From Candidatus Latescibacterota bacterium (GTDB lineage Bacteria > Krumholzibacteriota > Krumholzibacteriia > WVZY01 > JAKEHA01): a stretch of 64,000 bases of DNA. Below the pieces are notes generated by a model, which was not told the origin of the DNA, did no database searches, and saw nothing but the letters and a program-made list of their open reading frames with translations. Shown here piece by piece: positions 5,165-33,468 of this stretch (the stretch's first letter is position 1; every line of letters starts with the position of its first letter). Where the stretch lies: assembly GCA_963707635.1 (NCBI GenBank), contig OY970173.1:2816001-2880000 (forward strand), given 5' to 3'. The position numbers and the translations under genes are program-made.

Positions 5165-5172
5165 GCCTGCGC

Positions 5173-5739
5173 TCAAGCCTTCAGCCTCGCATGGAGCCAG
5201 GACCGCGCAATGGCCCAATCCCGGTCCACGGTTCTGGGGTTCACTCCAAGAGCGCTCGCCACTTCGGGCACACTGAGTCCCGCAAAATAGCGCAACTCCA
5301 CGACACGAGCCTGGCGGGGTGAGAGCTTCTCGAGATCCGAGAGCGCTTCGTCCAGGTCCAGCAGCTCCACCGACTGCTCCTGACTGAGGCTCAAAGCGTG
5401 ATCGAGCGAAAGCGCGGTTTGCTCACCCTCGCGCTTCTGTGCCTGCCGGTGGCGCGCGTGATCGATCAGGATCCTCCGCATGATGTTGGCGGCGGCGGCG
5501 TAGAAATGTGCCCGGTTCTCCCACGTGTGGTGTTCGTGGGCCACCAGCCGCATGTACGCCTCGTGCACCAGAGCGGTGGGCTGCAGATCGCGACCGGGAC
5601 GTTCGTGACGGAGCCGGGCTCGTGCCAGGTTTTTCAACTCGGGGTAGATCAGATCCATCAGTCGGGACGCGGCGGCGCCGTCACCCGGCCGAAACTCGCG
5701 CAGGAGAAGCGTCACCTGGGTGGCCCGTTCGCTGGTCAT
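5173..5739 (-). CDS. ECF sigma factor, STK-associated type (TIGR02999/ECF43-like)
   Basis: LQPTALVHEAY, NRAHFYAAAA, ELRYFAGLS..EVA..LGV..RTV.RDW motifs. Confidence 0.9.
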   Translation of the reverse strand: MTSERATQVTLLLREFRPGDGAAASRLMDLIYPELKNLARARLRHERPGRDLQPTALVHEAYMRLVAHEHHTWENRAHFYAAAANIMRRILIDHARHRQAQKREGEQTALSLDHALSLSQEQSVELLDLDEALSDLEKLSPRQARVVELRYFAGLSVPEVASALGVNPRTVDRDWAIARSWLHARLKA

Positions 5740-5890
5740 TGCCTGCCTCCCGTTTTCTTTTGACCCCAACAAGATAGCACGCGACCCCGCAGGATGTCGC
5801 GATTGCCTCCGCTGTCACGCCATGAAGGGTCGAGGGGTGAAGTGAAACAGGCCAAGTTGTCCGAAATGGACGGAGTGGAAGGAGACACAC

Positions 5891-6691
5891 ATGGATAAGT
5901 TCACAGTAGCGATTTTTCCGAACGAAGCCGCGGCCTATCAAGGGACACGCGTTTTCAAGGAACTGGACAAGGAACGCAGCCTGACGCTCTACGGCATGGC
6001 CGTGATCGCCAAGGACATGAATGGGAAAGTGACGATCAAGGAGGCCGCGGACCGGGGACCGCTGGGGACGGCGGTGGGCGGTCTGACGGGCGGACTGATC
6101 GGCCTGCTCGGCGGTCCAGTGGGAGCGGCGGTCGGGCTTGGAAGCGGTGCGCTGCTCGGGAGCCTGGTCGACCTTTCCAACCTCGGCGTGAGCACGAGCT
6201 TCGTGGACACCGTCCTGCAGGAAGTCACACCGGGCAAGGCCGCCGTCGTCGCCGAAATGGAGGAGGAATGGATCACGCCGCTCGACACGCGGATGGAGGC
6301 CATCGGCGGCGTCGTGGTACGTGAGCCGCGGGCTGATTTCGAGTACCTGCAGTACCAGGAGGAAGTCGTGGCGCTGAAGGATGAGCTCGCGGAACTCAAG
6401 GCCGAATTCGCCCAGTCCAAGGACAAAAACCGCGCGAAGTTGAAAGCGCGGATTGACCAGACAGAGAAGAAGCTCGAGGGCGCCTCTGCCAGAGCCGAAG
6501 CATGGATGGATCGCCGCCGGGAGGAGACGGAAGCGAAGGTCAAGGCGCTGCAGGCCCGTGCCGAAAAGGCAAGTGCCGAGACGAAGGCAAGAAACCAGAA
6601 GCGCGCCGCGGAGATTCGAGCCGAAAGCGAGCGCCGGTCGGCCCTGATGCAGCAAGCATCGACGCTGGTGAAAGAGGCGCTCAGACATTAG
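5891..6691 (+). CDS. DUF1269-like glycine-zipper membrane protein with C-terminal coiled coil
   Basis: GTAVGGLTGGLIGLLGGPVGAAVG zipper, charged helical tail, RBS GGAG. Confidence 0.7.
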   Translation: MDKFTVAIFPNEAAAYQGTRVFKELDKERSLTLYGMAVIAKDMNGKVTIKEAADRGPLGTAVGGLTGGLIGLLGGPVGAAVGLGSGALLGSLVDLSNLGVSTSFVDTVLQEVTPGKAAVVAEMEEEWITPLDTRMEAIGGVVVREPRADFEYLQYQEEVVALKDELAELKAEFAQSKDKNRAKLKARIDQTEKKLEGASARAEAWMDRRREETEAKVKALQARAEKASAETKARNQKRAAEIRAESERRSALMQQASTLVKEALRH

Positions 6692-6794
6692 CCGCGCGCT
6701 CGCGGTCCTGACCGGTGTCAGGTCGCTGGTCGCACAAAGGATCGGGGCCGTTCATGGGAACGGCCCCGCATCCGACGAGAAACGGGGGTCAGTC

Positions 6795-7502
6795 ATGTTT
6801 CCGCTGCGGGACGATATTCCATCGCGCCGCCGACCGGTGGTCGTCTGGGCGCTCGTCCTTCTGAACGCCATCGTCTTCCTGTACGAGATGCAGCTCTCCG
6901 AGGTCGAGCTAACGCAGTTCATCGAACGGTTCGCACTGACGCCGGCGGCGCTGACGGCTCCAAGCGGACTGCTCCACCACTGGACGACGCTCTTCACTCA
7001 CATGTTTCTGCATGGTGGCTGGCTTCACGTCATCGGCAACCTATGGTACCTGTGGATCTTCGGCGACAACGTCCTGGATCGCTTTGGCAGCGGGCGATTC
7101 CTGCTGCTCTATGTTGCGGGTGGGCTCGTGGCGGCTACGCTCCAGGTTTGTCTCAATCCCCAGATGCAGGCGCCGATGGTGGGCGCAAGCGGTGCGATTG
7201 CCGCCGTACTGGGTGCGTACCTCGTGCTCTATCCCAGGGCGCGCGTGATCACTTTCATTCCGATCTTTGTGTTCATCAAGCGGGTGAGTGTCCCGGCCGT
7301 CGTCTGGCTCGGGCTCTGGTTTGTAGAACAGTATCTCCTCGGAACGGGGTCTCGCTCCGATGCGACTGAAAGCGGAGGCGTCGCCTACTGGGCGCACGTC
7401 GGTGGTTTTCTCTTCGGGATCCTGGCCGGAATCTGGACGCGCGCGCGGGAAGCTGCGGGGAGAGGGCCGGCGCACGGTATCCGGCCCGCCTTGATGTCGT
7501 GA
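6795..7502 (+). CDS. Rhomboid family intramembrane serine protease
   Basis: HMFLHGGWLH..GN, GASG catalytic Ser, AHVGG catalytic His. Confidence 0.92.
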   Translation: MFPLRDDIPSRRRPVVVWALVLLNAIVFLYEMQLSEVELTQFIERFALTPAALTAPSGLLHHWTTLFTHMFLHGGWLHVIGNLWYLWIFGDNVLDRFGSGRFLLLYVAGGLVAATLQVCLNPQMQAPMVGASGAIAAVLGAYLVLYPRARVITFIPIFVFIKRVSVPAVVWLGLWFVEQYLLGTGSRSDATESGGVAYWAHVGGFLFGILAGIWTRAREAAGRGPAHGIRPALMS

Positions 7503-7596
7503 TCGTCGTCGGCGTTACGCCATAAATGTCGAAGGAAGAACAATCGTCGCCAGCCGGCGGAACCGTCGTCCGGCGACACAACCTGGGAGGTAGATC

Positions 7597-8313
7597 ATGG
7601 TGGAGATGCTGGCGCGCAACTGGGGATGGGTGCTGATGCGCGGGATCGCGGCGATACTGTTCGGCATGCTCACGCTCTGCAATCCGGGAATCGCACTGAC
7701 GACGCTCGTCATGCTCTTTGGCGCCTACGCGCTCCTCGACGGCGTCTTTATAGCGGTGTCGGCGGTCGCGAACCGGAAGGGCCAGTCGCGCTGGGTGGCA
7801 CTGCTGGTGGGCGGGATCCTGGGGATCGCGGTCGGCATCCAGACCTTCCTGATACCGAGCCTCACGGCGGCCGCTTTGGTAGCATTCATCGCGATCTGGT
7901 CAATCATCATCGGCATCACCGAGATCGTGGCGGCAATCACGCTGCGCAAGGTGCTCTCGGGCGAATGGATGCTTATGCTCGCCGGCCTGGCGTCGGCCGC
8001 CTTCGGCGTATTCCTCATCGCGCGTCCGTCGCTGGGGGCCCTGGCAGTGGTGCTTTGGATCGGCGCCTCGGCGATGGTATCGGGGATCCTGCTTATCGCG
8101 CTGGCCTTCCGACTGCGCAGCTGGGGCCGCAGTCCGGCCATCGCGGCACTCACCGCGCGCGCAGCAGCGTGGCGTGCCGGCGTAGTGTACAAACTCGCGA
8201 GCCCGCGGCCGCCACGGAGCGGCCGCGTCGCTTCCAGGCCGCGTGTGACGGCATTTCGCCGGCGGCCGCGAGGTTCATCGAGAGTCCCTCAGCACACGAA
8301 GGAGACTCATTGA
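7597..8313 (+). CDS. HdeD/DUF308 family membrane protein
   Basis: MLARNW..LMRGIAAILFG start and six hydrophobic segments. The tail after ~8150 looks non-homologous, so the true end is uncertain. Confidence 0.8.
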   Translation: MVEMLARNWGWVLMRGIAAILFGMLTLCNPGIALTTLVMLFGAYALLDGVFIAVSAVANRKGQSRWVALLVGGILGIAVGIQTFLIPSLTAAALVAFIAIWSIIIGITEIVAAITLRKVLSGEWMLMLAGLASAAFGVFLIARPSLGALAVVLWIGASAMVSGILLIALAFRLRSWGRSPAIAALTARAAAWRAGVVYKLASPRPPRSGRVASRPRVTAFRRRPRGSSRVPQHTKETH

Positions 8314-8335
8314 GTAGCTCAAAGGAGGAACAATC

Positions 8336-8833
8336 ATGTACGGATTCAAAGCGTTCGTGTTCAATGGCAAGAAGACGGCCAGCAAGGCTTACGATACTCT
8401 CGAAGAGCACATGCCGGTCTACCCGTGGATTGATGACGCCGCCGTGGTGTCGAAGAACAAGCTCGGCTTCACCCGGGTTTACAGCACCTGGGCGCAGGAC
8501 GACACCGCGGTCGGCGTCGGAACCGGTCTCGGCGTAGTGACCGGTGCCCTGCTCGGAGCCATTCTGGGGCCCGGCGTCGCTGCGGCGGGAGCCGCGGTGG
8601 GTGGTTCAGTGGGCGCCGTGTCCGGCGCGGTCGGCGAAAGCGTCCTCAGCGACCCGCGCTTGGACGACTTTGCGGCGTCGCTCGCGAAGGACACCTCGGC
8701 GTTGATTCTGGTCGGCGAGAGAGCCTCGATCCTCGACTTCACCTCGGCGGTCGCGCCCTACGGTGGAAAGATCATCGAGACCAACCTCGACGAGAAGGAC
8801 GTCAAGGCCCTGAGGAAGTCTCTCAAGAAGTAG
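8336..8833 (+). CDS. DUF1269-like glycine-zipper membrane protein
   Basis: DDAAVV, GTGLGVVTGALLGAILGPG zipper, GGKIIETNL; RBS AGGAGG. Confidence 0.7.
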   Translation: MYGFKAFVFNGKKTASKAYDTLEEHMPVYPWIDDAAVVSKNKLGFTRVYSTWAQDDTAVGVGTGLGVVTGALLGAILGPGVAAAGAAVGGSVGAVSGAVGESVLSDPRLDDFAASLAKDTSALILVGERASILDFTSAVAPYGGKIIETNLDEKDVKALRKSLKK

Positions 8834-8979
8834 GGAGCCGTCGATCCCGATGCCCGGCGGGAGCGATCTGGGGGCGACGCGCCAACACAAGGTTGGCCCG
8901 TCGCCCCTCTTTTTTCGCGTCGGCGCGGCCCATTTAGGACGCAGAGCGCTTCATCATGAGCAGCGATGCCACAAAGGGT

Positions 8980-9050
8980 TGGTGGAGGCGGCGGCGAGCG
9001 AAGCGAAGCTCAGAGCCGACCTCTGGCTTGTGTTCTACACAAACAGAGTT
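8980..9050 (-). repeat. tmRNA-3'-end-linked repeat unit (42-bp core plus hairpin spacer)
   Basis: 8980-9021 TGGTGGAGGCGGCGGCGAGCGAAGCGAAGCTCAGAGCCGACC is identical to 14464-14505. Confidence 0.9.
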
Positions 9051-9225
9051 TGGTGGAGGAGGCGGGAATCGAACTCTGTCGATGGAGAAACTCTAACACG
9101 TTGATGGCGTGTGGTTTCGGATGCTACGAGTTGAAACATCGCCAGTTAGGTGACCGCTGCTTCTCCACTCCAGTCCTCTGCAGTCTTCTGGAATCGACCC
9201 ACGTCATGGAGACATTTTGGAGACG
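9051..9225 (-). mobile_element. att-like module copy 1 (displaced tmRNA 3' end plus arm)
   Basis: First 24 nt match the ssrA 3' end (1 mismatch). Ungapped alignment with 11034-11208 gives about 142/175 identities by hand count. Confidence 0.8.
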
Positions 9226-9248
9226 CCACGCAGCGTTCGCTCGGGACG

Positions 9249-10733
9249 TTAGTGCTGCGTGGGCAGATCTGAGGAATGTAGCAGCTCCACAACCAGCCGC
9301 TGCTCCTCGTTGCCTCCCTCGTCGTGCCACCGAACGCGCGTGATCTGGATGGACCGGTTCGTGATCCACAGCGGATCGGACACGGCCCATTCGGAGCCAT
9401 CGAGTAGGCACCACGAATCACCCGTCGCGGCGTCCGCAATCCACAGGTCGGCCGCAATGGTGTCGCCCACGTGGTGCAGCCGTGTCGGACGCGAGAATGC
9501 AATCCACCGCCCATCCCGGCTCCAGGAGAATTCATGCGACGCGCCCACCTTCAGACTGTCGATAACCGTTACTCGGGCATCGGGAACGGTGACAGTGTAG
9601 AGAAGGGCTCCGCTCCACTTGCGGGAGATGCCGCTTACTGCGATGGTGCGTGAGTCCGGCGACCACTTCGATTCAGTCCCGTCGGTGAGGTCGCCTTCCA
9701 TGACGATCTTGGACGCCGTCACGTCGACCACCGTCAATTGATAGGGATTCAGATGCGATTTCCAGACCACGCAGCTAAGGCAGCGGCCGTCCGGCGACCA
9801 TTGAGGCAAGGACGCCGGCGTCTCTAGCAAACGGCGCGATTCTCCAGTCGCGACATCGACGATCTCCACGTAACCCCTGCGCGAAACAATCACGACGCGT
9901 GCAACCAGAGAGTCCGGCCCAGGCACGTAGTTTCGGTCCGACGACGACCGGAGATAATCCGTTTTTGTTTCGAAGGGGACGTCGTCAGCCCACGGCTCTC
10001 GCAAAGCCACGACTTTCCACGGATTCACGGACGCGTGATTGCGGACTGCGCTGCACTTGACGGCAGTCAGGAGCAGACTTTCGTCGCCCGGCGCAAACTC
10101 TCCAACGGCGACATCGTCCAATCCGAAGCTCGCCCCGTTCTTCCCCACGACGCGGAAGCCAAACTGAACCTTCTTGCCGGCCCACGCCGACAGATCGACA
10201 AAACGTTCGCGGTAGATGAATGGATCCGCCGGTGACTCATTGCCAGTGATCGACCAGAGAGACGTCCAGCCTGTCGTACCCGCTTCACGAATGTTGAGCG
10301 ATCCATCGAGCACACTCGACCACTGCGTATTCCCGGACCAGGAAAACTTGATTGCCTTGTCGGTCGCTCCGAGCGCCACCACCGGCGTGATCAGCCACTC
10401 GTCGATAGCTCTCGGTGACTCGCTTCCGACATACGCCGCCGCGCTCCCGGTTCCAATGTTGTCGGGATCGGTGGTTCGGTGCCAGGCGTGCGGCAGAGGC
10501 AGGCCTGCGCTCTTCGTGCTCCAGCCCGGCGGCGGAAAGGTTGCGCCCTCGAATCCCTCCGCCAGTGTGGCTGGCGGTACACGTCCCGCCGGTACCGCCG
10601 ACTGGGATCGTTGGGAAGCAGCCAACGGCGTGCATTCTGGTACTCCGTGGGCGTTGCCGACGATGAACGTGGGAACGCTGAGGAGAAGCCCGGCAATAAA
10701 CGCCTTCATAAGGAGTGTCATGGGTCGCTTCAT
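9249..10733 (-). CDS. Secreted protein: cleaved-adhesin/MAM-like domain plus TolB-like beta-propeller
   Basis: Signal peptide; EGFEGATFPPPGW..DEWLITP..LDDVAV; WSPDG/WSPDS/WSRDG repeats. Start uncertain (ORF open to 10784). Confidence 0.7.
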   Translation of the reverse strand: MKRPMTLLMKAFIAGLLLSVPTFIVGNAHGVPECTPLAASQRSQSAVPAGRVPPATLAEGFEGATFPPPGWSTKSAGLPLPHAWHRTTDPDNIGTGSAAAYVGSESPRAIDEWLITPVVALGATDKAIKFSWSGNTQWSSVLDGSLNIREAGTTGWTSLWSITGNESPADPFIYRERFVDLSAWAGKKVQFGFRVVGKNGASFGLDDVAVGEFAPGDESLLLTAVKCSAVRNHASVNPWKVVALREPWADDVPFETKTDYLRSSSDRNYVPGPDSLVARVVIVSRRGYVEIVDVATGESRRLLETPASLPQWSPDGRCLSCVVWKSHLNPYQLTVVDVTASKIVMEGDLTDGTESKWSPDSRTIAVSGISRKWSGALLYTVTVPDARVTVIDSLKVGASHEFSWSRDGRWIAFSRPTRLHHVGDTIAADLWIADAATGDSWCLLDGSEWAVSDPLWITNRSIQITRVRWHDEGGNEEQRLVVELLHSSDLPTQH

Positions 10734-11033
10734 TGGATCATCGTGCGAGTGCGACAGGTCGCTGCATAACCTTCGCCATTTCACGACCAGAAGGGACCGC
10801 TGAAAGGTGCTGCAGAGGTGCGTTCAATGCAGAGTGTCCGCGGAGTAGTTAGCTAACGCGGCGATGCCACCCAAGCGACGACTAGATACGAAGCGGCGGG
10901 AACTGCGGAAACGCGGATTTCGTCATGGAAACGGCGAGCGGCATAAGTTGTTCACGCTTCAGCGGTTGGTTACAATGGCACGCAAGTCGCGCTTCGCGCG
11001 AGCACTCATAACTCTATACGAATACACAAGAAA

Positions 11034-11208
11034 TGGTGGAGGCGGCGGGAATCGAACCCTGTTGCGAACGAAACATTAACCTGATGATGGCGTGCGATTT
11101 CGGTTGTTGTGAGTTGAGAGATCGCAGGTTAGTTGACCGCCGCTTGTCCACTTCAGTCCTCTTGAGTCTACCGGACTCAACCCACGTCATGGAGACATTT
11201 TGGAGACG
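11034..11208 (-). mobile_element. att-like module copy 2 (displaced tmRNA 3' end plus arm)
   Basis: 11034-11059 is a perfect 26-nt copy of the ssrA 3' end (14533-14558). Ends in a 29-bp block identical to 9197-9225. Confidence 0.8.
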
Positions 11209-11402
11209 GGTTTGACCTTCGCCCTTGTGCGGAGTTACTTTTATGGTGAATTGCCAGTCGGTTCTCGCCCGTCTCCGGGCAAAGATGTGGGCTTGAAAGT
11301 GTCCACCGTTCGGATTACGCTGCCTGCATTCCGGCCCGGTGATTTCATTCCGGAGACCTCCTTTCTTGCGGTTAACTCCAGGCGGCCATCGGCCCAAGGA
11401 GC

Positions 11403-14324
11403 GTGACGCGCTTGCCAACTCCGCGCGATTTCATCCTGCACCGCAGTTTCTTCGCCATGCTCGTACTGGCGGTCCCGCTCTTCCCGGCGCTGCTCTCCGC
11501 GGCAGAGAACGCGACCTCGACGGCCGTTCCTGCTCCGGCCGCGCCCGTGCGCCATGCGCCGTCGATTGATCGCAACGCCATCCAGGCCGCCGTTCAGGAA
11601 TTCCAGTCTTCCCAGTCACCCCGCTGGACGGTGTCGTGGGACCCGGTGAGCGGTCTCCCTCGAATGCTGACTGGCCAGACCACGCGCTCCTACGGGGCCA
11701 CATCGGAAGCCGCCGCGCTGGCATTCGCTGGCGAGCATCGGATGCTTCTGGGCTTGATCGATGAGAAACACTCGGTGCGCCTGGTTGGAACGAAACTCAT
11801 GCGCACCCAATGGCGCGTAACGCTGCAACAACAATTCGCCGGGATCGACGTCCTCGATGGGACGATTCAGGTGGTCGTGGACGGGAAAGGCCGCGTCCTA
11901 TATGTGACAAACTCGGCGTGGCCGGTTTCCGCCGTCGATTTCTCGATCGATGTCGGTGAGAGCGCCGTACGCTCCTCGATCGCCCGGCGGTTCAGTGGCG
12001 AAGACGTCACCTACAATGACGGACCCCGCCGCGTGATCTACCCATCCGGGAATGGGCGGCTCGCGTATGTGGCGTACGTGCTCGCCGGCCCGCAGGGGCC
12101 GTGGCGCGTCCTCGTCGATGCGCGGACGGGCGGCATCCTGGAAGCGCGGCGGTTGGTGGTCGAGGAGAAGCAGGCCCCATCGCAGGATGCCGCGACGCAG
12201 CAGAATCCGTCGCGCCCCGCGGACGTCGCCGACGTCAATGATCCGTGTGCCCGCGAGTGGAACGAGATGGGGGGAGCCGCGGTGATCGAGGTCCCGGATC
12301 CTGCAGACCCGTACTATGTCGACGTAAAGGTTGGCGTGCCCGGTCTCGGCGAGTTTCAACCGCAGGGGATCGGGACGTCCGCTGCGGGGATCAAACTCTT
12401 TCCGTGCATTTATTACACAATCCAGGTCGACTACAACGTGCACACCTGGGGTGGCTGGAATACTCCCAACGGCTTCCGTGATGTCTTCTTCGTCAACGTC
12501 AACAACATGAACTGGTACTGGAATCTCGGGCTCATTCCGCAGGCGCAGCTGTTCTGTACGACCGCCTACAACGACATGGGACTGATTCTCCCCGGCAAGG
12601 CCTGGGTCGCCGGCGGGAATCGATGCGGCGACGGCCTCTTGTGCGATCTGGTGGGATCGTTCCAGTTCGACATCATCGAACCGAACAACACCAAAGAGCT
12701 CTATCTCTCGGTTGGGATGCAGCGGGTCTCAGTTTCGTGTCCGTCATGGGGGACCATCCGGGTCAAGATCATCGCGAAGTCCCGTGTCTTCGACCCCAAC
12801 CCGGTGACCACGCTGAACCAGCCCTTCACGGACCAGGATGACGCCAACGAAGCCGTTCCCTGCGACGCGTACATCGGCGTCGACCTTCCGAATCTTACCC
12901 CGCCGCCGCCCGGGCAACCCTGGACTCTCACGGGCGACTATTGCGAGATCGTGGACATCACGGCCCCTGCCAAAACGTACACCTCGGCGCGCGACCCGAA
13001 TTTCCCCTATCTGCGCCGGTGCGACATGTTCGAAGCGGTGAATGCCTACTACCACATCACGACCAACCAGCTCTACATCCAGTCTCTCGGTTTTACCGGC
13101 CTTTCCGGCATCAACAACCGCGCGCATCGCGTGGACCCGCATGGGATGGATCACGTGGACAACTCGCAATACGTCGGTAATCCCCCGGGACTTGGCTACA
13201 TCGAGTTCGGCGAGGCCTTTGTCGACGACGCCGAAGACGCCGACGTGATCCTCCACGAGTACGGCCACTCGATTCAGGACAACCAGACATTCGGCTATTA
13301 CCTCGGGACTGGCGCAGGCAACGGCTTCGGCAACGAGACGTGGGCGATGGGCGAGGGGTTCGCCGACTACTGGGCGTGCAGCAACTTTGCCGACGAGAGT
13401 ACCGCGAGCGGCTTCGACCCCGCCGCGTACGGCGAGTGGAACAAACAGAACATGACCGGGACCCGCAGGGTCGACAAGAACAAGATCTATCCGACGAATA
13501 TGGAAAGCGAAGAACACGCCGACGGAGAGATCTGGTCGCGCACGCTGTGGGACCTCTTTCAGGCAGTCGGGAAGACGACCTCTGACGTGCTCATACTGGA
13601 GAGTCACTATCTCGTTCCTTCACGTCCATTGTTCAGCGACGGCGCCAAGGCGTTGATTGCAGCGGACGCAGTTGCCAACGCGGGCGCCAACAAGAATACG
13701 ATTGTCGCCATCTACGTCGATCGCGGCATCTTCCGTAGTCTCGCCGTTGCATCGTCGCCCATCAACGGCGTGCCGATCACCGTGTCGAGGCAGGACGTAC
13801 GTGGCGATCAAAGTGATGCCACCGACTTCAACCGGACGTATGCGTGGGGGGACTCGGTATCGCTCGACGCACCGCCCTCGTTTGGCGACCGTACTTTCAC
13901 GCGCTGGGATGTGGACGGCGTCGCGGGTGCGAACGGCGACTTGACCGCCGTCGTGCGCATGGACGAATCGCCACCATTTCACTCGGCCATCGCTTACTAC
14001 GATACTCTCCCTGGCGACCCCGGCACGCCCGTCCGTGACATCCCGAAAGCCCTGGCGCTGCTTCAGAATCACCCGAACCCGTTCAACCCGACGACGACGA
14101 TCACGTTCACGTTGCCGAGGGAGATGGAGATCGAGCTTTCGGTGTTCGACGTGGCGGGCCGGCGGGTGGCCACACTCCGGAGCGGACGCGAACGGGCAGG
14201 CGTCTATGCCGTGGTGTGGGATGGACGGAGCGCGGCCGGTGAGACGGTGAGCTCGGGCGTGTACATCTACCGGTTGCGAGCGGGCCAAACGGTTCTGACG
14301 AGGAAGATGACACTACTCAAGTAG
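11403..14324 (+). CDS. Secreted M36 (fungalysin)-like metallopeptidase with propeptide and C-terminal FlgD-Ig-like domain
   Basis: Signal peptide, FTP/PepSY-like prodomain (WRVLVDARTG), HEYGH, MGEGFADY, EHADGEIW, NHPNPFNP...RKMTLLK. Confidence 0.85.
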   Translation: MTRLPTPRDFILHRSFFAMLVLAVPLFPALLSAAENATSTAVPAPAAPVRHAPSIDRNAIQAAVQEFQSSQSPRWTVSWDPVSGLPRMLTGQTTRSYGATSEAAALAFAGEHRMLLGLIDEKHSVRLVGTKLMRTQWRVTLQQQFAGIDVLDGTIQVVVDGKGRVLYVTNSAWPVSAVDFSIDVGESAVRSSIARRFSGEDVTYNDGPRRVIYPSGNGRLAYVAYVLAGPQGPWRVLVDARTGGILEARRLVVEEKQAPSQDAATQQNPSRPADVADVNDPCAREWNEMGGAAVIEVPDPADPYYVDVKVGVPGLGEFQPQGIGTSAAGIKLFPCIYYTIQVDYNVHTWGGWNTPNGFRDVFFVNVNNMNWYWNLGLIPQAQLFCTTAYNDMGLILPGKAWVAGGNRCGDGLLCDLVGSFQFDIIEPNNTKELYLSVGMQRVSVSCPSWGTIRVKIIAKSRVFDPNPVTTLNQPFTDQDDANEAVPCDAYIGVDLPNLTPPPPGQPWTLTGDYCEIVDITAPAKTYTSARDPNFPYLRRCDMFEAVNAYYHITTNQLYIQSLGFTGLSGINNRAHRVDPHGMDHVDNSQYVGNPPGLGYIEFGEAFVDDAEDADVILHEYGHSIQDNQTFGYYLGTGAGNGFGNETWAMGEGFADYWACSNFADESTASGFDPAAYGEWNKQNMTGTRRVDKNKIYPTNMESEEHADGEIWSRTLWDLFQAVGKTTSDVLILESHYLVPSRPLFSDGAKALIAADAVANAGANKNTIVAIYVDRGIFRSLAVASSPINGVPITVSRQDVRGDQSDATDFNRTYAWGDSVSLDAPPSFGDRTFTRWDVDGVAGANGDLTAVVRMDESPPFHSAIAYYDTLPGDPGTPVRDIPKALALLQNHPNPFNPTTTITFTLPREMEIELSVFDVAGRRVATLRSGRERAGVYAVVWDGRSAAGETVSSGVYIYRLRAGQTVLTRKMTLLK

Positions 14325-14348
14325 TCCGCGTCTGATCGAAGCGGCGCA

Positions 14349-14532
14349 CAGAGCCAACGCATGGTCCTCGTTCGACGAGAACAGGGTTTGGCGGAGGCAG
14401 CGGCTGGCGCGGAACGCGCTGCTCAAAGCCCACCTCAGGTTTGTGTCTTACACAAACAGAGGTTGGTGGAGGCGGCGGCGAGCGAAGCGAAGCTCAGAGC
14501 CGACCGGAGGCTTACTGTTAGTAAGCATGGGT
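14349..14532 (-). repeat. Tandem tmRNA-3'-end-linked repeats (about 70-75 bp period)
   Basis: TGG(T/C)GGAGGC(G/A)GCGGC at 14389 and 14464 precede the true ssrA end at 14533; each pair is separated by a distinct hairpin. Confidence 0.85.
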
Positions 14533-14904
14533 TGGTGGAGGCGGCGGGAATCGAACCCGCGTCCGAAGAAGCAGCCGCAACGGTTACTACGTGTGTAGTC
14601 CGTGGTGATTTCTCATCTCCGTACCCACCGCGGACGAAAGTGTAACGGAGACCAGCCCGGTAGTTTCTCGCGCCTCAGCCCCAGACATAGCCTCGGCGCC
14701 AGCCCCCAGAGTATGACGCCCACTCACCGGCCCTGGAGACCCAGCCGGTGGGGACGGGAGCCTAAGCTAGCTTAGCTAGTTAGGCAGCCAGTGCGACGTT
14801 GTTGTCAGCACTTGAATTGGTGCCACCTGGTTTTACGAGGCTTGTGACCTGGCTCGACACGCAACCGGTACGCCCATCTTCCCCGTCGAGACCTGTTCGC
14901 CCCC
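14533..14904 (-). ncRNA. ssrA: tmRNA
   Basis: 5' GGGGGCG pairs with 3' CGCCTCC-A-CCA including G3:U70; T-arm GGTTCGATTCC; tag reading frame ADNNVALAA* at 14809-14780. Confidence 0.97.
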
Positions 14905-25018: not shown

Positions 25019-26287
25019 GTGTCGCTGCGGCTTTTCGAGGGTTTTGGGGTCGAGCTGGAGTACATGCTCGTCCACGCGGACTCGCTCGACGTCCTCCCCG
25101 CCACCGATCAGGTCATCCTCGCCGTCGCGGGAGACTTTATCGCCGAGGTCGAGCGCGGCGCGCTCGCCTGGTCGAACGAGCTGGTCAACCACGTCATCGA
25201 GCTCAAGACCAACGGCCCCGCGCCGCAGCTTCGCGGGCTCGACGATGCCTTCGCGCGCGACGTGGTCGAAATCCTCGCGTTGCTTCGCCCGCTCGGCGGG
25301 CGCCTGATGCCGACCGCCACCCACCCGTGGATGGACCCCGCCCGCGAGACCACGCTCTGGTCGCACGAGGAATACAACGAGGTCTATGAGGCGTTCGATC
25401 GCATCTTCGGCGTGCGGGGGCACGGATGGGCGAACCTCCAGTGCGTGCATCTCAACATTCCCTTCTACGGGGACGCCGAGTTTGCGCGGCTCCACGCCGC
25501 CATGCGTCTGCTCCTTCCGATCATCCCGGCGATCGCGGCGAGCTCGCCCATCCTGGACGGACGCCTCACCGGCCTCATGGACAGCCGGATGCATTTCTAT
25601 CGCGAGAACACGAGGAAGATTCCCTCCATCACCGGCAAGGTGATTCCCGAGCCGGTGTACTCGAAGCGCGAATACGAGGAGACGATCCTGGGGCGCATGT
25701 ACGCCGATATCGCGCCGCACGACCCGGAGGAGACTCTGCGCGACGAGTGGCTGAATGCACGCGGCGCCATCGCGCGTTTCGACCGGAGTGCCATCGAGAT
25801 CCGCATCATCGACATCCAGGAGTGCCCCACCGCCGACTTCGCCGTCATGCACGCGATCACCTGCGTCCTGCGCGCGCTGGTCGAAGAGAAATGGCAGCCC
25901 GCCGAGCGCCAGCAACGGTTCGACACCGACGCGCTGAATGCCGTTCTACTCGACACCACCCGCCACGCGGAAGAGGCGGCGATTCGGGATTCCGATTACC
26001 TCGCCGCGTTCGGCTTGCACGCAACCCCGGTGAAAGCCGGCGAGCTGTGGCAGCACCTGGTCGAAACCGTGGTGGCGCCCGATGCGGACTTCGGCGATCC
26101 GTGGTCGTCGGCGATGCGTACCATTCTGGACGAAGGCACGCTCGCGCGGCGGATCGTGCGCGCGGTCGCCCGCGAGAAGCCGGGAGCGGCGGCCCGGGCC
26201 GGCCTCGAGCGTGACACGCTCCACCGAGTCTACGCCTCGCTGTGCGACTGCCTGAAGTGGAACCGGGGCTTCCATGCCACGCCGTGA
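25019..26287 (+). CDS. Glutamate-cysteine ligase family 2 (GCS2) protein
   Basis: FGVELEYM, SNELVNHVIELK, HPWMDP, HLN, RGAIARFDRSAIEIR. Confidence 0.88.
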   Translation: MSLRLFEGFGVELEYMLVHADSLDVLPATDQVILAVAGDFIAEVERGALAWSNELVNHVIELKTNGPAPQLRGLDDAFARDVVEILALLRPLGGRLMPTATHPWMDPARETTLWSHEEYNEVYEAFDRIFGVRGHGWANLQCVHLNIPFYGDAEFARLHAAMRLLLPIIPAIAASSPILDGRLTGLMDSRMHFYRENTRKIPSITGKVIPEPVYSKREYEETILGRMYADIAPHDPEETLRDEWLNARGAIARFDRSAIEIRIIDIQECPTADFAVMHAITCVLRALVEEKWQPAERQQRFDTDALNAVLLDTTRHAEEAAIRDSDYLAAFGLHATPVKAGELWQHLVETVVAPDADFGDPWSSAMRTILDEGTLARRIVRAVAREKPGAAARAGLERDTLHRVYASLCDCLKWNRGFHATP

Positions 26288-26999
26288 CCGCGGCCGGCGC
26301 GACCTTGCGATCGTCGTGAGCTGCGAGCACGGCGGACATCGCGTCCCCGCGCACTACCGTTCGCTTTTCAAGGGCCACGAGCGCGTTCTAGCTTCGCACC
26401 GGGGGTGGGACCCGGGAGCGCTGGTGCTGGCGCGCGCGATCGCGCGCGTGTGCGGCGCCCGGCTGGTCGCCACCACGACCTCGCGCTTGTTGGTCGAATG
26501 CAACCGCTCGATCGGGCACCCGCAGCTCTTCTCCGAGTTCACGCGCCGACTCCCGCCCAACGAGCGCACACGCCTCCTGGAGCGCTACTACCGCCCCCAT
26601 CGCCGCGCGGTCGAAGAAGCGATCACCCGCGCGCTCGAGTCGCACAAACGCGTGTTGCACGTCGGCGTGCATACGTTCACGCCGGTCTTGAACGGCGTGC
26701 GGCGACGCGCCGACGTCGGCCTGCTCTACGACCCGAAGCGCCCGTTCGAGCACGCGGTGGCCGACTCCCTCGTCGTCCACCTCGGCCTGCGCGCGCCCGC
26801 GCTGGTTGTCCGCAGGAACTATCCGTATCGCGGCTGGTCCGACGGCCTGACCACGGCGCTGCGTTCGTGGCTCCCCCGCGGCCGCTACGCCGGCATCGAG
26901 CTGGAAGTGAACCAGGCGCTCGCCGCCGGAAACGCCCACGCCTGGTCGGCGACGCGGCGCCGGATCGCGGCGTCGTTTCGGGACGCCTTTCTGGACTGA
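26274..26999 (+). CDS. N-formylglutamate amidohydrolase family protein
   Basis: SCEHGG, HRGWDPGA, SRLLVECNRS, HTFTP, NYPY, ELEV. Confidence 0.88.
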   Translation: MPRRDRGRRDLAIVVSCEHGGHRVPAHYRSLFKGHERVLASHRGWDPGALVLARAIARVCGARLVATTTSRLLVECNRSIGHPQLFSEFTRRLPPNERTRLLERYYRPHRRAVEEAITRALESHKRVLHVGVHTFTPVLNGVRRRADVGLLYDPKRPFEHAVADSLVVHLGLRAPALVVRRNYPYRGWSDGLTTALRSWLPRGRYAGIELEVNQALAAGNAHAWSATRRRIAASFRDAFLD

Positions 27000-27918: not shown

Positions 27919-28359
27919 GTGAAACGCTTTTGCATTCTTGTCACTGGACTGTTTCTCGTCGCCACCGAAGCCGCGCCTGCATTTGCCGGCGTCGGGTTTC
28001 ACATCGGGGGAACGATCGACCCGGATATGTTCCTGATCGGCGCACGCTTCAGGAGCCGCCCCCTCGCAGAGGCGATTTACGTGGTCCCCAACGCCGAGGC
28101 GGGCTTCGGCAGCGACATCCTCATGATCGGCGGCAACCTGGACGGCTACTATTCCTTCAAGACCAGCTCTGAGCTCCGGCCGTATATCGGCGGCGGCATC
28201 ACGCTCAACTGGTTCGACTTCGACAACGGCGGGAGCGACACCGAGTTTGGCGGGAGCATTCTCGGCGGAATCTATGTCAAACCAACGCTCTTCTTCGAGA
28301 CCAAGTGGGGACTGGGAGACGTTCCCGACTGGAAGTTCTACGTCGGCTGGAACAAGTAG
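27919..28359 (+). CDS. Small outer-membrane beta-barrel protein
   Basis: GTG start after GGAGG, signal peptide, LRPYIGGG, ends KFYVGWNK. Confidence 0.75.
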   Translation: MKRFCILVTGLFLVATEAAPAFAGVGFHIGGTIDPDMFLIGARFRSRPLAEAIYVVPNAEAGFGSDILMIGGNLDGYYSFKTSSELRPYIGGGITLNWFDFDNGGSDTEFGGSILGGIYVKPTLFFETKWGLGDVPDWKFYVGWNK

Positions 28360-28401: not shown

Positions 28402-28444
28402 AAACGGCCCACGTCGAAGGACGCGGGCCGTTTCAGTTGGTGCG
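28402..28444 (-). repeat. tRNA-Lys 3' remnant plus terminator, copy D
   Basis: AAACGGCCCACGTC-GAAG-GACGCGGGCCGTTT-CAGT-TGGTGCG; same layout as at the intact tRNA-Lys. Confidence 0.75.
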
Positions 28445-28454
28445 TCCCCCAGCG

Positions 28455-29447
28455 TCAGCGATTGACGAGCCCCAGCATCTTCGGATCGTAGCGACCGCCC
28501 ACGACGGCGCCCTTCGGCGAGGCCTCTTCGATGCGCGCGATATCCGCGTCGCCGAGCTCGACATCGACCGCCGCTATGTTCTCTTCCAACCGCGCGATGC
28601 TGCTCGTACCCGGAATCGGGATGATGTCGTCGCGCCGGTGCAGCAGCCAGGCCAGGGCGAGTTGGGCCGGCGTGCAGCCTTTCTTCGCCGCCACTTCCCT
28701 TACCCTTTCGGCAATCGCCAGGTTCTTCGCAAAATTTTCGCCCTGGAACCGCGGGTTGTTGCGACGCCAGTCGTCGGGACTCAAGTCCTCGACCCCTCGA
28801 AAGCGTCCACCCAGGAATCCGCGGCCGAGGGGGCTGTACGCGATCAGCGCAATGCCTAGCTCCTCCAGGGTCGATAGCATCTCGAGTTCCGGGTCCCGGG
28901 TGAACAGAGAGTATTCATTCTGCACCGACGCCAGCGGATGAACCGCGTGCGCGCGGCGAGCCGTGGCTACCGACGGCTCCGACAATCCGATGTGCCTCAC
29001 CTTTCCCTCGCGCACGAGCTCTGCCATCGCACCGACGGTCTCCTCGATCGGCACGGACGTGTCGACGCGGTGCAACTGATAGAGATCGATGTATTCGACG
29101 CCCAGGCGTTTGAGCGAAGACTCGCACGCCTGGCGCACGTACTTCGCGCTGCCGTCGACGGGGCGCCCGGCGGCTGCCCCTCCGCGCGCGAAACCGAACT
29201 TCGTGGCGAGGATCACACGCTCACGCCGGCCCCTGATGGCCTTGCCCACCTTGAGCTCCGAGTCGCCGTAGATGTCGGCGGTGTCGAGGAACGTGAGACC
29301 CAGATCGAGGGCACGGTGAATGAGCGCCATGGCCTCATCGTCGTTCTTCACGCTGCTGGTATACGTATCCGCGATGCCAATGCTCATGCAGCCGAGACCC
29401 AGAGCCGACACCTCGGGGCCGCTGCGGCCGAGTTTTCGATGCTTCAT
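28455..29447 (-). CDS. Aldo/keto reductase
   Basis: [40 protein letters not shown]. Confidence 0.93.
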
Positions 29448-29497
29448 ATTGCTGCCTCCTGGTCACACGTATGATATCGGCACAGAATCGAAAATGC

Positions 29498-29594
29498 AAA
29501 CGGCCACGTCCGCGCCGACGTGGGCCGTTTTAGTTGGTGCGCCGCGAAAGACTCGAACCTTCAACCACCTGATCAAGAGTCAGATGCTCTACCA
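29498..29594 (-). repeat. tRNA-Lys 3' 60-nt fragment plus terminator, copy C
   Basis: 29535-29594 matches the tRNA-Lys 3' 60 nt at 58/60; the 5' acceptor strand is missing; hairpin at 29498-29530. Confidence 0.9.
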
Positions 29595-29758
29595 CGCACG
29601 CTGGCCCTCGGGCCTGCGTGCGTGATAGACTTATATCCAACGCGAGAGCCTCCTACCGACGCTCCCGCCTGATCGTCGACATCCGAACGTCGGCCGGGTG
29701 TAGTTATGTGTTCTTCGGCGGCCACCGACTCCGCCCCCGAATACGCAGGAGGCCGTCC

Positions 29759-32170
29759 ATGCGCTCGTTTCTCCTCTCCCTGTCGATCACTGTCAGCCTG
29801 TTTCCCGTCGCCGCGAGCGCCCAGTGGGGGCTCGACGGGGCTCCGATCTGCACCGCGTGGAACAGCCAGTACTCCCCGGACATTGTCTCCGACGGCGCGG
29901 GCGGAGCGATCATTGCCTGGTACGACTACCGTTTGAGCAGCCTGGATATCTACGTGCAGCGGGTAAACGCTCTAGGGATTCCGCAGTGGACAGCCAACGG
30001 TGTCGCACTGTGTTCGGCCGCCAACGAACAGTACTACCCGGTCGTCGTCTCCGACGGCGCGGGCGGAGCGATCGTCGCGTGGTACGACGGCCGCGGAAGT
30101 AGCTACGATATCTACGCGCGGCGAATCAACTCGTCGGGGGTTCCCCAGTGGGCAGCCGACGGCGTCGCCCTCACAACCGCGGCGAACGGCCAGTTCAGCC
30201 CCACCATAGTTTCCGATGGTGCCGGAGGAGCGATCGTCGCATGGTACGATTTCAGCAGCGGATCCGATTACGACATCTACGCGCGGCGGATCAACGCGTC
30301 GGGAACTCCCCAGTGGACCGCCAACGGTGTCGCCCTCTGCACCGCTCTTAACGACCAGGCCTATCCCAACCTCGTCTCCGACGGCGCGGGCGGAGCGATC
30401 GTCGTGTGGAGTGACTATCGATCCGGCGCAGGCGACATCTACGCGCGACGGATCAATGCATCGGGGACGCCGCAATGGACCGCCAACGGCGTCGCCCTTT
30501 GCAGCACGGTCGGAGATCAGGCGCACCCCGCCATCGCCGTGGATGGCGCGGGCGGAGCTATCGTGGCATGGGACGACCGTCGCGGCGGACCGAACTCGGA
30601 TCTCTATATCCAGCGCGTGAACGCGTCGGGAACGCCGCAGTGGGCCCCCAACGGCGTCGCCATGTGCACCGCCATGAACGATCAGGAGTACCCCGCCATC
30701 ACCCTCGACGGAGCGGGCGGTGCGATCGTGGCCTGGGAGGACTTCCGCAGCGGATTCGACCACGACATTTTCGCCCAGCGGATGGTCGCCTCGGGATCTC
30801 CCCAGTGGGCCGATAACGGCGTTGCCGTTGCCATCGCACCGAACTCGACATATCTGCCTACCATGGTTTCCGATGGCACCGGTGGTGCAATTCTAGCGTG
30901 GCAGGACGACCGCAACGGGTTCGACTTCTCCGACGTCTACATGCAACGGCTCGATGCGCTCGGGAACGCCCAGTGGACCCCCAACGGAGCCGTGATCTCG
31001 AGCGCGGTCGGTCACCAATACGACCTGGCGTTGATCACCGACGGTGCCGGAGGAGCGACGGTCGCCTGGACGGATGACCGCAGCAGTTTCTACAGCACCC
31101 ACATCTACGCCCAGCGAGTCGAAGATCACTATGGGTACTGGGGGCACCCGGAGCCCGTCGTCAAGTCGGTCGCCGACATTCCGAAAGACAACGGCGGAAG
31201 GGTCGCACTCAACTGGACGCCGAGTGGGCGCGACCTCTCGAACCCGCGCACGGTCGATCATTACACGATCTGGCGCGCGGTCGACGTCATCCCGGCCCCG
31301 GTCTCGAACGCGACCGCGGTCTTGACCGACATTGCGAATGTGGGCGAGACCGCGGACGGACCGGTGTACGCGGTACTTCCTTCTTTGTCCGGCTACTACT
31401 GGGAGCTGGTGGGAACGCAGTCCGCGAACGCCTGGTCCGGGTACTCGTTCTCCACCTCGACGCGTGCCGATTCGGTCGCCGGGAATTCGGGAACCGAGAC
31501 CTTCATGGTGGCGGCGCACCTCCAGTACGACTCCTATGTCGCGTTCCCGTCGAACGTGATGAGCGGCCACTCCGTCGATAACCTGGCTCCCGCCGCCCCG
31601 CTGATGCTCACAGCGCTGCGTGCCGGCGCCGACGTGCACTTGCAATGGAATCGCGTGCGCGTCCCTGACCTGCGCGACTACTCGCTGTATCGCGCCACGT
31701 CCACCGGTGTGACCCCCGTGCCGATCAACTTCCTCGCGTCGGCCGAGGAGACGTTGCTGGTCGACGCAGGCGCGCCGTCCTCCGCGCTTTACTACATCGT
31801 GACCGCTATCGACGTGCACCACAACCAGGGTCCACCGTCGAATGAGGCCAGTGTCGGTGCGCTGACTGGCATCGGAAACACACCACCGATCGCCGCCCTG
31901 ACCGTGCTCGAGAACGTGCCAAATCCGTTCAATTCCCGAACGACATTGCGCGTCGGCCTGCCGCGGGCGAGCGAACTGGAGGTCGAGGTGTACGACGTCT
32001 CCGGCAGGCGGATCCGGGACGAACGGACCGCGGCGCTCGGGGCGGGTTGGCGAGAGGTTCCCTTCGAGGCGCGGAGCACAAACGGGAGTGTGCTCCCGAG
32101 CGGAGTCTATTTCTATCGCGTGACGGCAGCGGGACAGTCCGTCAGGGGCAAGATGGTGATCGCCAGGTAG
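29759..32170 (+). CDS. Secreted repeat (propeller-like) protein with FN3-like stalk and FlgD-Ig-like domain
   Basis: About 7 repeats of SDGAGGAIVAW.D.R....DIYA.R.NASG.PQW..NG; VDNLAPAAP; PNPFN..GKMVIAR. Confidence 0.85.
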   Translation: MRSFLLSLSITVSLFPVAASAQWGLDGAPICTAWNSQYSPDIVSDGAGGAIIAWYDYRLSSLDIYVQRVNALGIPQWTANGVALCSAANEQYYPVVVSDGAGGAIVAWYDGRGSSYDIYARRINSSGVPQWAADGVALTTAANGQFSPTIVSDGAGGAIVAWYDFSSGSDYDIYARRINASGTPQWTANGVALCTALNDQAYPNLVSDGAGGAIVVWSDYRSGAGDIYARRINASGTPQWTANGVALCSTVGDQAHPAIAVDGAGGAIVAWDDRRGGPNSDLYIQRVNASGTPQWAPNGVAMCTAMNDQEYPAITLDGAGGAIVAWEDFRSGFDHDIFAQRMVASGSPQWADNGVAVAIAPNSTYLPTMVSDGTGGAILAWQDDRNGFDFSDVYMQRLDALGNAQWTPNGAVISSAVGHQYDLALITDGAGGATVAWTDDRSSFYSTHIYAQRVEDHYGYWGHPEPVVKSVADIPKDNGGRVALNWTPSGRDLSNPRTVDHYTIWRAVDVIPAPVSNATAVLTDIANVGETADGPVYAVLPSLSGYYWELVGTQSANAWSGYSFSTSTRADSVAGNSGTETFMVAAHLQYDSYVAFPSNVMSGHSVDNLAPAAPLMLTALRAGADVHLQWNRVRVPDLRDYSLYRATSTGVTPVPINFLASAEETLLVDAGAPSSALYYIVTAIDVHHNQGPPSNEASVGALTGIGNTPPIAALTVLENVPNPFNSRTTLRVGLPRASELEVEVYDVSGRRIRDERTAALGAGWREVPFEARSTNGSVLPSGVYFYRVTAAGQSVRGKMVIAR

Positions 32171-32218
32171 CGCCGCGCCGCCTCAAATGCTGCCGGGTCG
32201 AAAAGTGCCACAAGAGTG

Positions 32219-32295
32219 ACGGGCCACGCCTGTGTCGACGTGGCCCGTTTCAGTTGGTGCGCCGCGAAGGACTCGAACCTTTAGCCACCTGATTA
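32219..32295 (-). repeat. tRNA-Lys 3' 41-nt fragment plus terminator, copy B
   Basis: 32255-32295 matches the tRNA-Lys 3' end at 39/41, stopping in the anticodon loop; hairpin at 32219-32248. Confidence 0.9.
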
Positions 32296-32426
32296 TGCGT
32301 GTGTCCGGCTGACACCCCTCAACTTGATAAATCGTGCGGGGCACGCTATGCTGAACTCCGGATGCCAGACGGCCCCGGGCACGTTGGCGCATAATCCATC
32401 ACGCAGGTCACCGGAGGAATCCCGTT

Positions 32427-32879
32427 ATGAAGACAATGCTTCGCCTGTTTCTCATGCTTGCAAGCGTCGTGACGCTTGTCGTCCATCTCGGTTGTTCCAA
32501 CTCCGGTGGCACTAGCGCCGTCGGCAAGACCCTCTATGAGCAGTTGGGGGGCGAAGACGGCGTAACCCGACTCGCCAACCAGTTCGGCACCAGCCTCCAG
32601 GCCGACCCCGATCTGTCCCAGCTCTTGAGCGCAGAGGTGATTGAAAACGCCAAGGCCGGCCTGACCAACGACATCAAGAAGGCGAGCAACATGAGCGCTG
32701 GCGACATGTCACTCGACAGCGCACTCAAAGACCAGAAGCTCGATGCCAACACCCTCGCCGGCGTCAACAATGCAATCGTCCAGGCCGCGAAGGGCATGAA
32801 CCTCAGCCAGGCGACGACCGATGGCCTCACGAACCTGATCAAGCCGCTCGCCCACAGTGTGCTGGAGCCGAAATTGTAG
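32427..32879 (+). CDS. Lipoprotein resembling a group I truncated globin
   Basis: Lipobox-like HLGC; TLYEQLGGEDGV..L..ADP.L pattern. Confidence 0.6.
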   Translation: MKTMLRLFLMLASVVTLVVHLGCSNSGGTSAVGKTLYEQLGGEDGVTRLANQFGTSLQADPDLSQLLSAEVIENAKAGLTNDIKKASNMSAGDMSLDSALKDQKLDANTLAGVNNAIVQAAKGMNLSQATTDGLTNLIKPLAHSVLEPKL

Positions 32880-32903
32880 GAGGCTCGCCAGGACAGGAGA
32901 AGA

Positions 32904-32933
32904 AACGGCCCGCATCTTTCGATGCGGGCCGTT
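32904..32933. terminator. Terminator hairpin downstream of tRNA-Lys (copy A)
   Basis: AACGGCCCGCATC-TTTC-GATGCGGGCCGTT perfect 13-bp stem. Confidence 0.85.
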
Positions 32934-32942
32934 CTTGTTAGT

Positions 32943-33017
32943 TGGTGCGCCGCGAAGGACTCGAACCTTCAACCACCTGATTAAGAGTCAGATGCTCTAC
33001 CATTGAGCTAGCAGCGC
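32943..33017 (-). tRNA. tRNA-Lys (CTT)
   Basis: Cloverleaf; anticodon arm CTGA-CT-CTT-AA-TCAG; encoded CCA. Confidence 0.96.
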
Positions 33018-33033
33018 ATTATTTTCGAACCGA

Positions 33034-33468
33034 CTAGAAAGGAAGGTCGTCGTCGGTGCTCGCCGCCGCCTGCGGAGCCGGTTCCGCCGCGAAGTCCTGC
33101 GGCACAAAGTCACTGCTGCCGCCGCCACCTTCGCCCGCCCGGCCCAGCATGGTCATGTTGTTGGCGACCACTTCGGTCGTGGATCGCTTTTGACCCTGCT
33201 GGTCCTCCCACTGGCGTGTCTGCAACCGGCCCTCGATGTAGACCTGCTTCCCCTTCTTCAAGTACTGCTGGCAGATCTCCGCGAGCTTGCCCCACGCGAC
33301 GATGCGATGCCATTCGGTCCGCTCCTCTTTCTCGCCGCTCTTGTTGGTGAAGCGTTCCGACGTCGCAATGTTGAAGTTCGCAACCGCCGTCCCCTGCGGT
33401 GTATACCGCACGGTCGGGTCGCTGCCGAGATTGCCGATCAGAATAACCTTGTTCACCCCACTCATCAC
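33034..33468 (-). CDS. ssb: Single-stranded DNA-binding protein
   Basis: [22 protein letters not shown], acidic DDDLPF tail. Confidence 0.97.

Follow-up and report, generated by a model that had tools for sequence, protein, structure and literature searches.

Serial insertion of islands at transfer RNA (tRNA) genes is a known bacterial route of gene collection. Additive flexible islands, described in Alteromonas and Candidatus Actinomarinales, expand through the addition of cassettes, each ending in a partial tRNA repeat (PMC7771536, PMC5217437). In Streptococcus agalactiae, integrase-free tandem relics termed cis-mobilizable elements (CIMEs) are common at tRNA-Lys(CTT), the most decayed of them lying farthest out, and streptococcal CIMEs and tandem accretion are described at tRNA-Lys(CTT), fda, and rpsI (PMC7563491). 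The ssrA arrays of Dehalococcoides include islands without integration modules (PMC3146451). Identity blocks can reach about 250 bp and may extend into a terminator (PMC10111431), and repeats in Burkholderia measure 14-56 bp and are sometimes lost (PMC2612704). The island finder Islander accepts only islands with an integrase and at least 2 kb, and it recognizes anticodon-loop and T-stem subsites (PMC4383910); two further papers serve as general background only (PMC12884075, PMC9897764). We analyzed a 64,000-nucleotide stretch (the window; bases 2816001-2880000 of the single-contig 3.2-Mb genome G000) from a Candidatus Latescibacterota bacterium, in which an intact tRNA-Lys(CTT) is followed by a ladder of its own 3' remnants, hairpins, and single cargo genes. 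The array is probably an additive island that was stacked serially at this tRNA by tyrosine-integrase elements and then eroded and remodeled by recombination.

The three remnants all lie downstream of tRNA-Lys(CTT), on the same strand, and all are 3' ends (Table 1). Counted from the end of the tRNA, copies 1, 2, and 3 are 688, 3408, and 4505 bases away, and the intervals measure 688, 2720, and 1097 bp, each with one cargo gene; cargo genes occur in both orientations and at varied distances. Remnant length from the tRNA outward runs 41, 60, and 7 nt, the shortest being the most distal. The exact 7-nt end of copy 3 occupies 28438-28444 on the minus strand, and this copy is better read as an 11-nt acceptor strand, which differs by two mismatches from its own tRNA and by one from the other acceptor allele, which 5 of the 13 same-genus loci carry. 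Behind every copy stand a related hairpin and the linker AGT-TGGTGCG, and copies 1 to 3 share a 15-nt start that is found three times in the genome. A prediction made earlier from the DNA letters alone (the original prediction) had described this ladder, with an intact tRNA-Lys and remnants of 41, 60, and about 7 nt, the hairpin and linker behind each copy, and an aldo-keto reductase, a FlgD-repeat protein, and a globin-like lipoprotein as cargo. All three descriptions were confirmed, the last by domain and fold searches.

Table 1. Features of the tRNA-Lys(CTT) array and its flanks, in window positions
Feature	Position	Strand	Remarks
Amidohydrolase-like gene	26274-26999	plus	First conserved distal gene (flank)
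Outer-membrane beta-barrel gene	27919-28359	plus	Beyond copy 3
Hairpin T3	28402-28433		Between converging reductase and beta-barrel genes
Copy 3, tRNA 3' end with linker	28434-28448	minus	7 nt exact, 11 nt imperfect; 10 nt past reductase stop
Aldo-keto reductase, 330 amino acids	28455-29447	minus	Pfam E 5e-85
Hairpin T2	29498-29531		Weakest; 51 nt before reductase start
Copy 2, 60-nt tRNA 3' remnant	29535-29594	minus	2 mismatches; start in D loop
20-bp inverted repeat	29588-29629		Overlaps first 7 nt of copy 2
Secreted repeat protein with FlgD-type tail, 803 amino acids	29759-32170	plus	E 8e-6
Weak match to G016 attL arm, possible arm relic	32195-32216	minus	Motif TGGCACT; score 25
Hairpin T1	32219-32248		49 nt from FlgD-repeat gene stop
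Copy 1, 41-nt tRNA 3' remnant	32255-32295	minus	2 mismatches; start inside anticodon loop
Globin-fold lipoprotein, 150 amino acids	32427-32879	plus	In 5 of 36 genomes of the order
Hairpin T0	32904-32933		Near-identical to post-tRNA hairpin of metagenome loci L182 and L190; 25 nt from globin-like stop
Intact tRNA-Lys(CTT)	32943-33017	minus	Anchor
ssb	33034-33465	minus	Conserved proximal flank

When all 47 tRNA and transfer-messenger RNA genes of the genome were scanned, as the original prediction had suggested, 15 3'-anchored fragments were found within 40 kb downstream and none within 40 kb upstream. By gene, these belong to ssrA (five), tRNA-Thr(CGT) (three), tRNA-Lys(CTT) (two), and tRNA-Asp (one), with four weak singles. 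A strong hairpin follows 7-nt tRNA ends at 4 of 153 sites downstream, compared with 0 of 147 upstream. These two asymmetries argue that the array exceeds chance. An assembly artefact is scarcely credible as its source, since the copies differ among themselves and from the tRNA, two studies supply small contigs identical (0 differences, depth about 2) to copy 2 and to the 5' junction of copy 1, and copy 2 recurs in a diverged contig, where it has a separate deletion. Copy 3 is uncovered and has no identical record, and no record spans the whole array. One run behind the matching contigs may be the source sample, and the sequencing runs contained only 6-10% of the words, so that uncovered parts carry no weight.

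The hairpin is the native terminator-like stem of tRNA-Lys(CTT) in the genus: a related hairpin stands directly behind the intact gene in 11 of 13 same-genus loci, and attachment (att) arm sequence takes that place in the other 2. With a terminator profile built from 17 relatives' tails, the four window copies rank 1, 2, 3, and 6 among the loci of the 3.2-Mb genome; the profile favors T0, because the search that supplied 6 of its 17 tails used a window-derived pattern. Two unrelated places in the genome rank between the window copies (E 0.036 and 0.078), one hairpin look-alike away from tRNA is common to G014, G010, and G006, and G011 has a related hairpin behind tRNA-Lys(TTT). Despite these few look-alikes, the ranks argue that the hairpin is not a genome-wide repeat, an objection that had been foreseen in the original prediction. 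No hairpin matched Rfam above the gathering score. The four hairpins differ, each with different closest relatives, and T0 with the globin gene is nearer to other lineages than to T1, T2, and T3. The distance to a cargo stop codon is 22-49 nt for T0, T1, and T3. No gene ends at T2, which in 50-nt tail folding reaches -21.5 kcal/mol against -28.1 to -28.7 kcal/mol for the others. We consider it improbable that the array arose by local duplication of the tRNA and its terminator, followed by decay and unrelated gene insertions, or that a generic hairpin simply follows tRNA-like ends. The look-alikes at non-tRNA places and the hairpin of G011 lend this idea some support; the profile ranks, the affinities of T0 and the globin gene, and the uniform placement of the remnants (all 3' ends, downstream, on the strand of the tRNA) speak against it.

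The tRNA-Lys(CTT) site is a hotspot of content change in relatives. Both flanks, ssb and the amidohydrolase operon, are kept in all five fully assembled relatives, and the distance from the tRNA to the amidohydrolase gene is 5.9 kb here and 2.1, 7.8, 15.9, 16.5, and 26.9 kb in those five, which hold shared interval genes in different orders. Cargo turnover had been proposed as a check on the original prediction; gene order proved not to be conserved, and repeated gene acquisition at a tRNA anchor is supported by these shuffled contents. In G001, the tRNA and terminator are followed by the reductase, a unit to which copy 2 plus the reductase aligns over 1110 nt at 78%. The order in metagenome loci L182 and L190 is tRNA, T0, globin-like gene, and reductase, without the FlgD gene; the window matches them at 86.6% over 747 nt, from the tRNA up to the copy 1 junction. 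At the place of copy 1 these loci retain a faint remnant trace, a score equaled by 0.1-5% of random windows with copy 1 as the query and by 2-17% with the tRNA as the query. In one contig of run X4, the beta-barrel gene is linked with a T0-like hairpin and a tRNA end of at least 25 nt, and in G012 the beta-barrel gene lies about 250 kb away from tRNA-Lys(CTT), so the beta-barrel gene is also variable content.

First-position alleles of this kind (globin in L182 and L190, reductase in G001, beta-barrel in the X4 contig) also fit a possible, if unlikely, alternative, namely homology-anchored capture without an integrase. Part of a relative's tRNA, with its terminator and next gene, would pair via RecA at the tRNA, and the other end would be joined illegitimately from a circle or a looped-out insert, giving an arbitrary remnant length and a donor terminator. 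Such alleles are also expected under serial insertion.

Relatives also display erosion. A contig of run X2, from a close relative, lacks 23 nt inside copy 2; L182 and L190 carry only the faint trace just described; and hairpins without a remnant stand inside the interval in G014, G002, G012, and G010. Among 12 other fetched same-genus loci, a remnant beyond chance was found in one (G009), with 7 of the 12 contigs ending before the distal flank, and there is no ladder in the five fully assembled intervals. The proposal of a lineage-wide cassette system therefore finds no support at this site. No tRNA-Lys(CTT) locus was found in the same-genus genomes G004, G008, and G011, which are 68-88% complete. 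In G012, a 12-nt match to the tRNA end 15 kb downstream, with no hairpin, was set aside as chance, and a 14-nt inverted T-arm piece lies upstream of the globin gene.

Relatives use tRNA-Lys(CTT) as an integrase target. In G016, direct repeats with a GGCACT core stand behind the tRNA, and 143 nt on there is an open reading frame cut by the contig end. All nine of its longer homologues carry PF00589; the best are 82-85% identical, and one is labeled Candidatus Krumholzibacteriia. Mixed acceptor-stem alleles, expected for an attL hybrid, were seen among the 13 tRNAs in that of G016 alone. G016 thus shows an attL arm with a tyrosine integrase at tRNA-Lys(CTT). The post-tRNA hairpin of G010 matches the G016 arm with a score of 38 (a score of 30 is reached by 0.025% of 4000 random windows) and is a relic of this arm. 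Remnants in G009, G026, G024, and G018 measure 46, 46, 47, and 49 nt and start just before the anticodon loop. G026 and G024 have arms that match the upstream arm of G009 (scores 35 and 34, equaled by 0 of 1500 random windows), and the 49-nt remnant of G018 has no arm match to these three. In G009, a perfect 87-bp repeat, made of 46 nt of tRNA and 41 nt including the terminator, surrounds 2.3 kb in which no integrase match was found; a repeated terminator thus goes with an integrase-type boundary in the genus. A FlgD-repeat homologue, 46% identical, lies in the island-side region of G026.

The original prediction had argued that variable remnant length and a re-supplied terminator fit poorly with a fixed-crossover integrase. 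This argument is not supported: the relatives combine an integrase, arms, and 46-47-nt remnants, the attR-type repeat of G009 duplicates the terminator, remnants of tRNA-Thr(CGT) range from 22 to 76 nt, and published identity blocks extend into terminators (PMC10111431).

Complete elements of the G016 type were sought in genome and viral collections, where, besides G016, matches to the integrase were only 24-56% identical. Among the 32 top loci scanned for tRNAs (the best 32 of 160), tRNA-Lys was present only in that of G016; many of the 32 show another arrangement, in which the integrase lies upstream of an intact tRNA of a different kind. Integrases 33-47% identical to the G016 type occur in 14 loci within L024-L047, where they stop about 80-130 nt short of an intact tRNA that lies downstream on the same strand; the tRNA type varies, short direct repeats lie between integrase and tRNA, and L035 has a 41-nt 5' tRNA piece 10 kb upstream. 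Apparently, these integrases displace the tRNA's 5' half. A metagenome pattern scan returned 13 loci, 10 of them with an intact tRNA-Lys. L185 and L186 were rejected as unrelated matches, and L183 and L188, from another lineage, carry 45-nt remnants with repeated flanks. L188 (positions 3593-9201, tRNA orientation) contains two tRNA-Lys(CTT) remnants of the anticodon-loop type whose upstream flanks are conserved; the G016-type integrase was not matched within 9.5 kb. L199 (G018:C249, 100-300) has two tRNA pieces close together: the 49-nt tRNA-Lys remnant with its hairpin and, about 25 nt further on, a 3' piece of tRNA-Glu.

As the original prediction had stated, the array itself is free of integrase. 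PF00589 matches in the genome are confined to two XerC/D-like genes and one fragment, all far from the array, and queries with the G016 integrase fragment and its full-length homologue returned nothing further. No island integrase was found in the array intervals, nearby, or elsewhere in the genome, and no serine recombinase was found in the genome. We saw no active element in this genome and no recombination or transfer genes in the intervals; a ComEC-family gene is present in the genome. The PF00589 fragment is a 109-amino-acid integron-integrase tail (TIGR02249, below cut-off) at G000:C1:806098-806427 (L264), 2 Mb away.

An integron consists of IntI, attI, and attC, and attC sites end in the consensus RYYYAAC / GTTRRRY. 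An integron-like system, with a dedicated recombinase acting on the hairpins as cassette ends, might be suggested by the single-gene units between hairpin-forming repeats, the 15-nt start common to copies 1 to 3, and this broken integrase tail. It is nevertheless very improbable. Neither attC end motif occurs in any of the four hairpins on either strand, the integrase piece is short, below cut-off, and unlinked, and the array differs further from integrons in the mixed orientation and varied distances of its cargo, its tRNA anchor, and the lack of ladders in relatives.

Variable remnant length also occurs at an integrase target elsewhere in the lineage. Integrases adjoin tRNA-Thr(CGT) in G005 and G006, a broken integrase does so in G001, and the remnants of this tRNA measure 22, 30, 45, 45, 46, 47, and 76 nt, with two internal pieces in addition. 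The ssrA and Thr arrays of the window's own genome carry arm-like flanks. Its tRNA-Thr(CGT) array (G000:C1:1612062-1623280, L247) has 45-nt and 22-nt remnants, FlgD-tail cargo, no integrase, and a short motif common to both ends of the first 2.4-kb interval. Five 3' remnants of ssrA lie at window positions 8977-14904 and 1.6 kb before the window, and a 175-nt repeat (81% identity) that includes arm-like direct repeats stands ahead of two of them. At tRNA-Asp (G000:C1:2715916-2717213), a damaged T-arm remnant with its own hairpin lies 1.2 kb on, and the hairpin of the intact gene differs. In G001, a near-complete tRNA-Thr duplicate (L255, G001:C11, about 11275-11347) with about 20 nt of upstream flank stands at the far end of the island array and has a 3-nt loss in its anticodon loop.

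Serial stacking by integrase elements probably explains most of the observation. In its favor, copy 1 comes within 5 nt of the 46-nt class of the relatives, and a weak arm match lies behind T1 at an offset of 37 nt, compared with 38 nt in G016. Tyrosine-integrase elements would have inserted one after another at the anticodon loop, each insertion restoring the tRNA and pushing the old 3' end, terminator, and old first gene downstream. The host-type terminator behind the tRNA may have come via the attP identity block or through later conversion from an empty allele. Integrase genes and arms would later have been deleted, leaving one useful gene per interval; three hairpins may have been kept because they end cargo-gene transcripts, and the tRNA remnants, presumably without function, would erode. 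The arrival order suggested here is beta-barrel, reductase, FlgD-repeat, and globin-like gene. By its own recombinase the array would now be immobile, and RecA could still lose or swap units via the 41-60-nt remnants.

Several observations weigh against this account. None of the window's remnants is 45-47 nt long, and copy 2 reaches 14 nt beyond this class, its D-loop start overlapping an inverted repeat that is unexplained and has no second copy in the genome or in the fetched loci. The 200 nt ahead of each window remnant yielded no arm match or motif; in 12 comparisons, the best score was one that 6% of random windows attain. Of the hairpins, only T1 is followed by an arm match, which is weak and comes from one of several windows tested; its score is reached by about 0.4-1% of random windows. 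The globin and reductase units align end to end with relatives' alleles, leaving no room for arms. The sole attL seen with its integrase, that of G016, carries its own hairpin and not the host type, and of 23 genomes in the family, one showed the integrase, in the form of a fragment at a contig end. A consensus terminator scan calls T0 and parts of T2 and does not call T1 or T3. Finally, a fixed crossover would not yield a whole tRNA-Thr duplicate with upstream flank such as that of G001.

The missing arms, the end-to-end allele matches, the oddity of copy 2, the separate hairpin of G016, the tRNA-Thr duplicate, and the ComEC-family gene keep homology-anchored capture in consideration. Capture was suggested as a possible mechanism in the original prediction, and it is still tenable for the window's armless remnants, although the anti-integrase grounds offered for it there are not supported. 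The different affinities of the four hairpins, the better fit of copy 3 to the other acceptor allele, and the GC content at third codon positions (GC3) of the cargo also suit it: values of 0.80-0.81, against 0.83-0.89 in three neighbors, make the genes look lineage-native. Against it, the clearest remnants of relatives cluster at the anticodon loop, three of them with shared arms, and a ladder is lacking in all five fully assembled relatives. Stretches of 7-11 nt are too short for RecA pairing, so erosion is needed regardless, and homology-facilitated illegitimate recombination normally deletes recipient DNA rather than duplicating it. We regard as slightly more doubtful again the view that members of the genus exchange whole tRNA-end-terminator-gene units without an integrase, the tRNA serving as a homology anchor at an essential gene; a captured unit would then bring the donor terminator and push the old unit downstream.

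The cargo of the array is varied. The globin-like lipoprotein has a Pfam match at E 0.009, below cut-off, and its structural model (mean predicted local distance difference test score 84.8) matches the fold of truncated hemoglobins at E of about 1e-3. At what we take to be the heme-binding position of truncated hemoglobins there is no conserved histidine, and an invariant Leu lies near that place in 21 aligned homologues. On the modeled fold, the protein may be a heme-less, secreted globin-fold protein. The FlgD-tail repeat family has 24 matching stretches in the genome and matches in 32 of the 36 genomes of the order; it is strongly expanded, with 56 matching stretches in G012, and several members lie near tRNA genes.

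Should serial stacking be correct, the locus would be a clear small example, in an uncultured lineage (likely Krumholzibacteriota, judging by the label of an integrase homologue), of tandem tRNA islands shrinking to gene plus terminator, and a candidate integrase, arm motif, and attB would be gained for the lineage; if capture is correct, it would show that genes can be captured at a tRNA with no site-specific recombinase involved. In the literature searched, which was partial and excluded most subscription papers, we found no account of recombinase-free gene capture at a tRNA nor of this locus. With the islands found by Islander and TIGER, the array shares a tRNA with displaced, same-orientation 3' fragments downstream and, in relatives, an anticodon-loop (A) crossover. 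It differs from Islander islands in that the intervals hold no integrase, two of the three are below 2 kb, and remnant lengths seem to fall off the A and J classes; the 2-200 kb length range is a program filter and not a mechanism, and relics of this size escape detection where a finder demands both an integrase and 2 kb (PMC4383910). As in CIMEs and the Dehalococcoides islands, integrase-free tandem cargo of 1.2-13 kb or smaller lies at a gene 3' end (PMC7563491, PMC3146451). CIMEs keep their att sites, whereas here there is a tRNA core with at most one weak arm motif and no active tandem element. The array also resembles additive flexible islands, whose available accounts do not mention terminators or junction analysis (PMC5217437, PMC7771536). 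The same position between conserved flanks, gain and loss of small cassettes, and partial tRNA repeats at cassette ends are all found here, with the differences that the units are single genes of 0.7-2.7 kb and that each remnant keeps its terminator.

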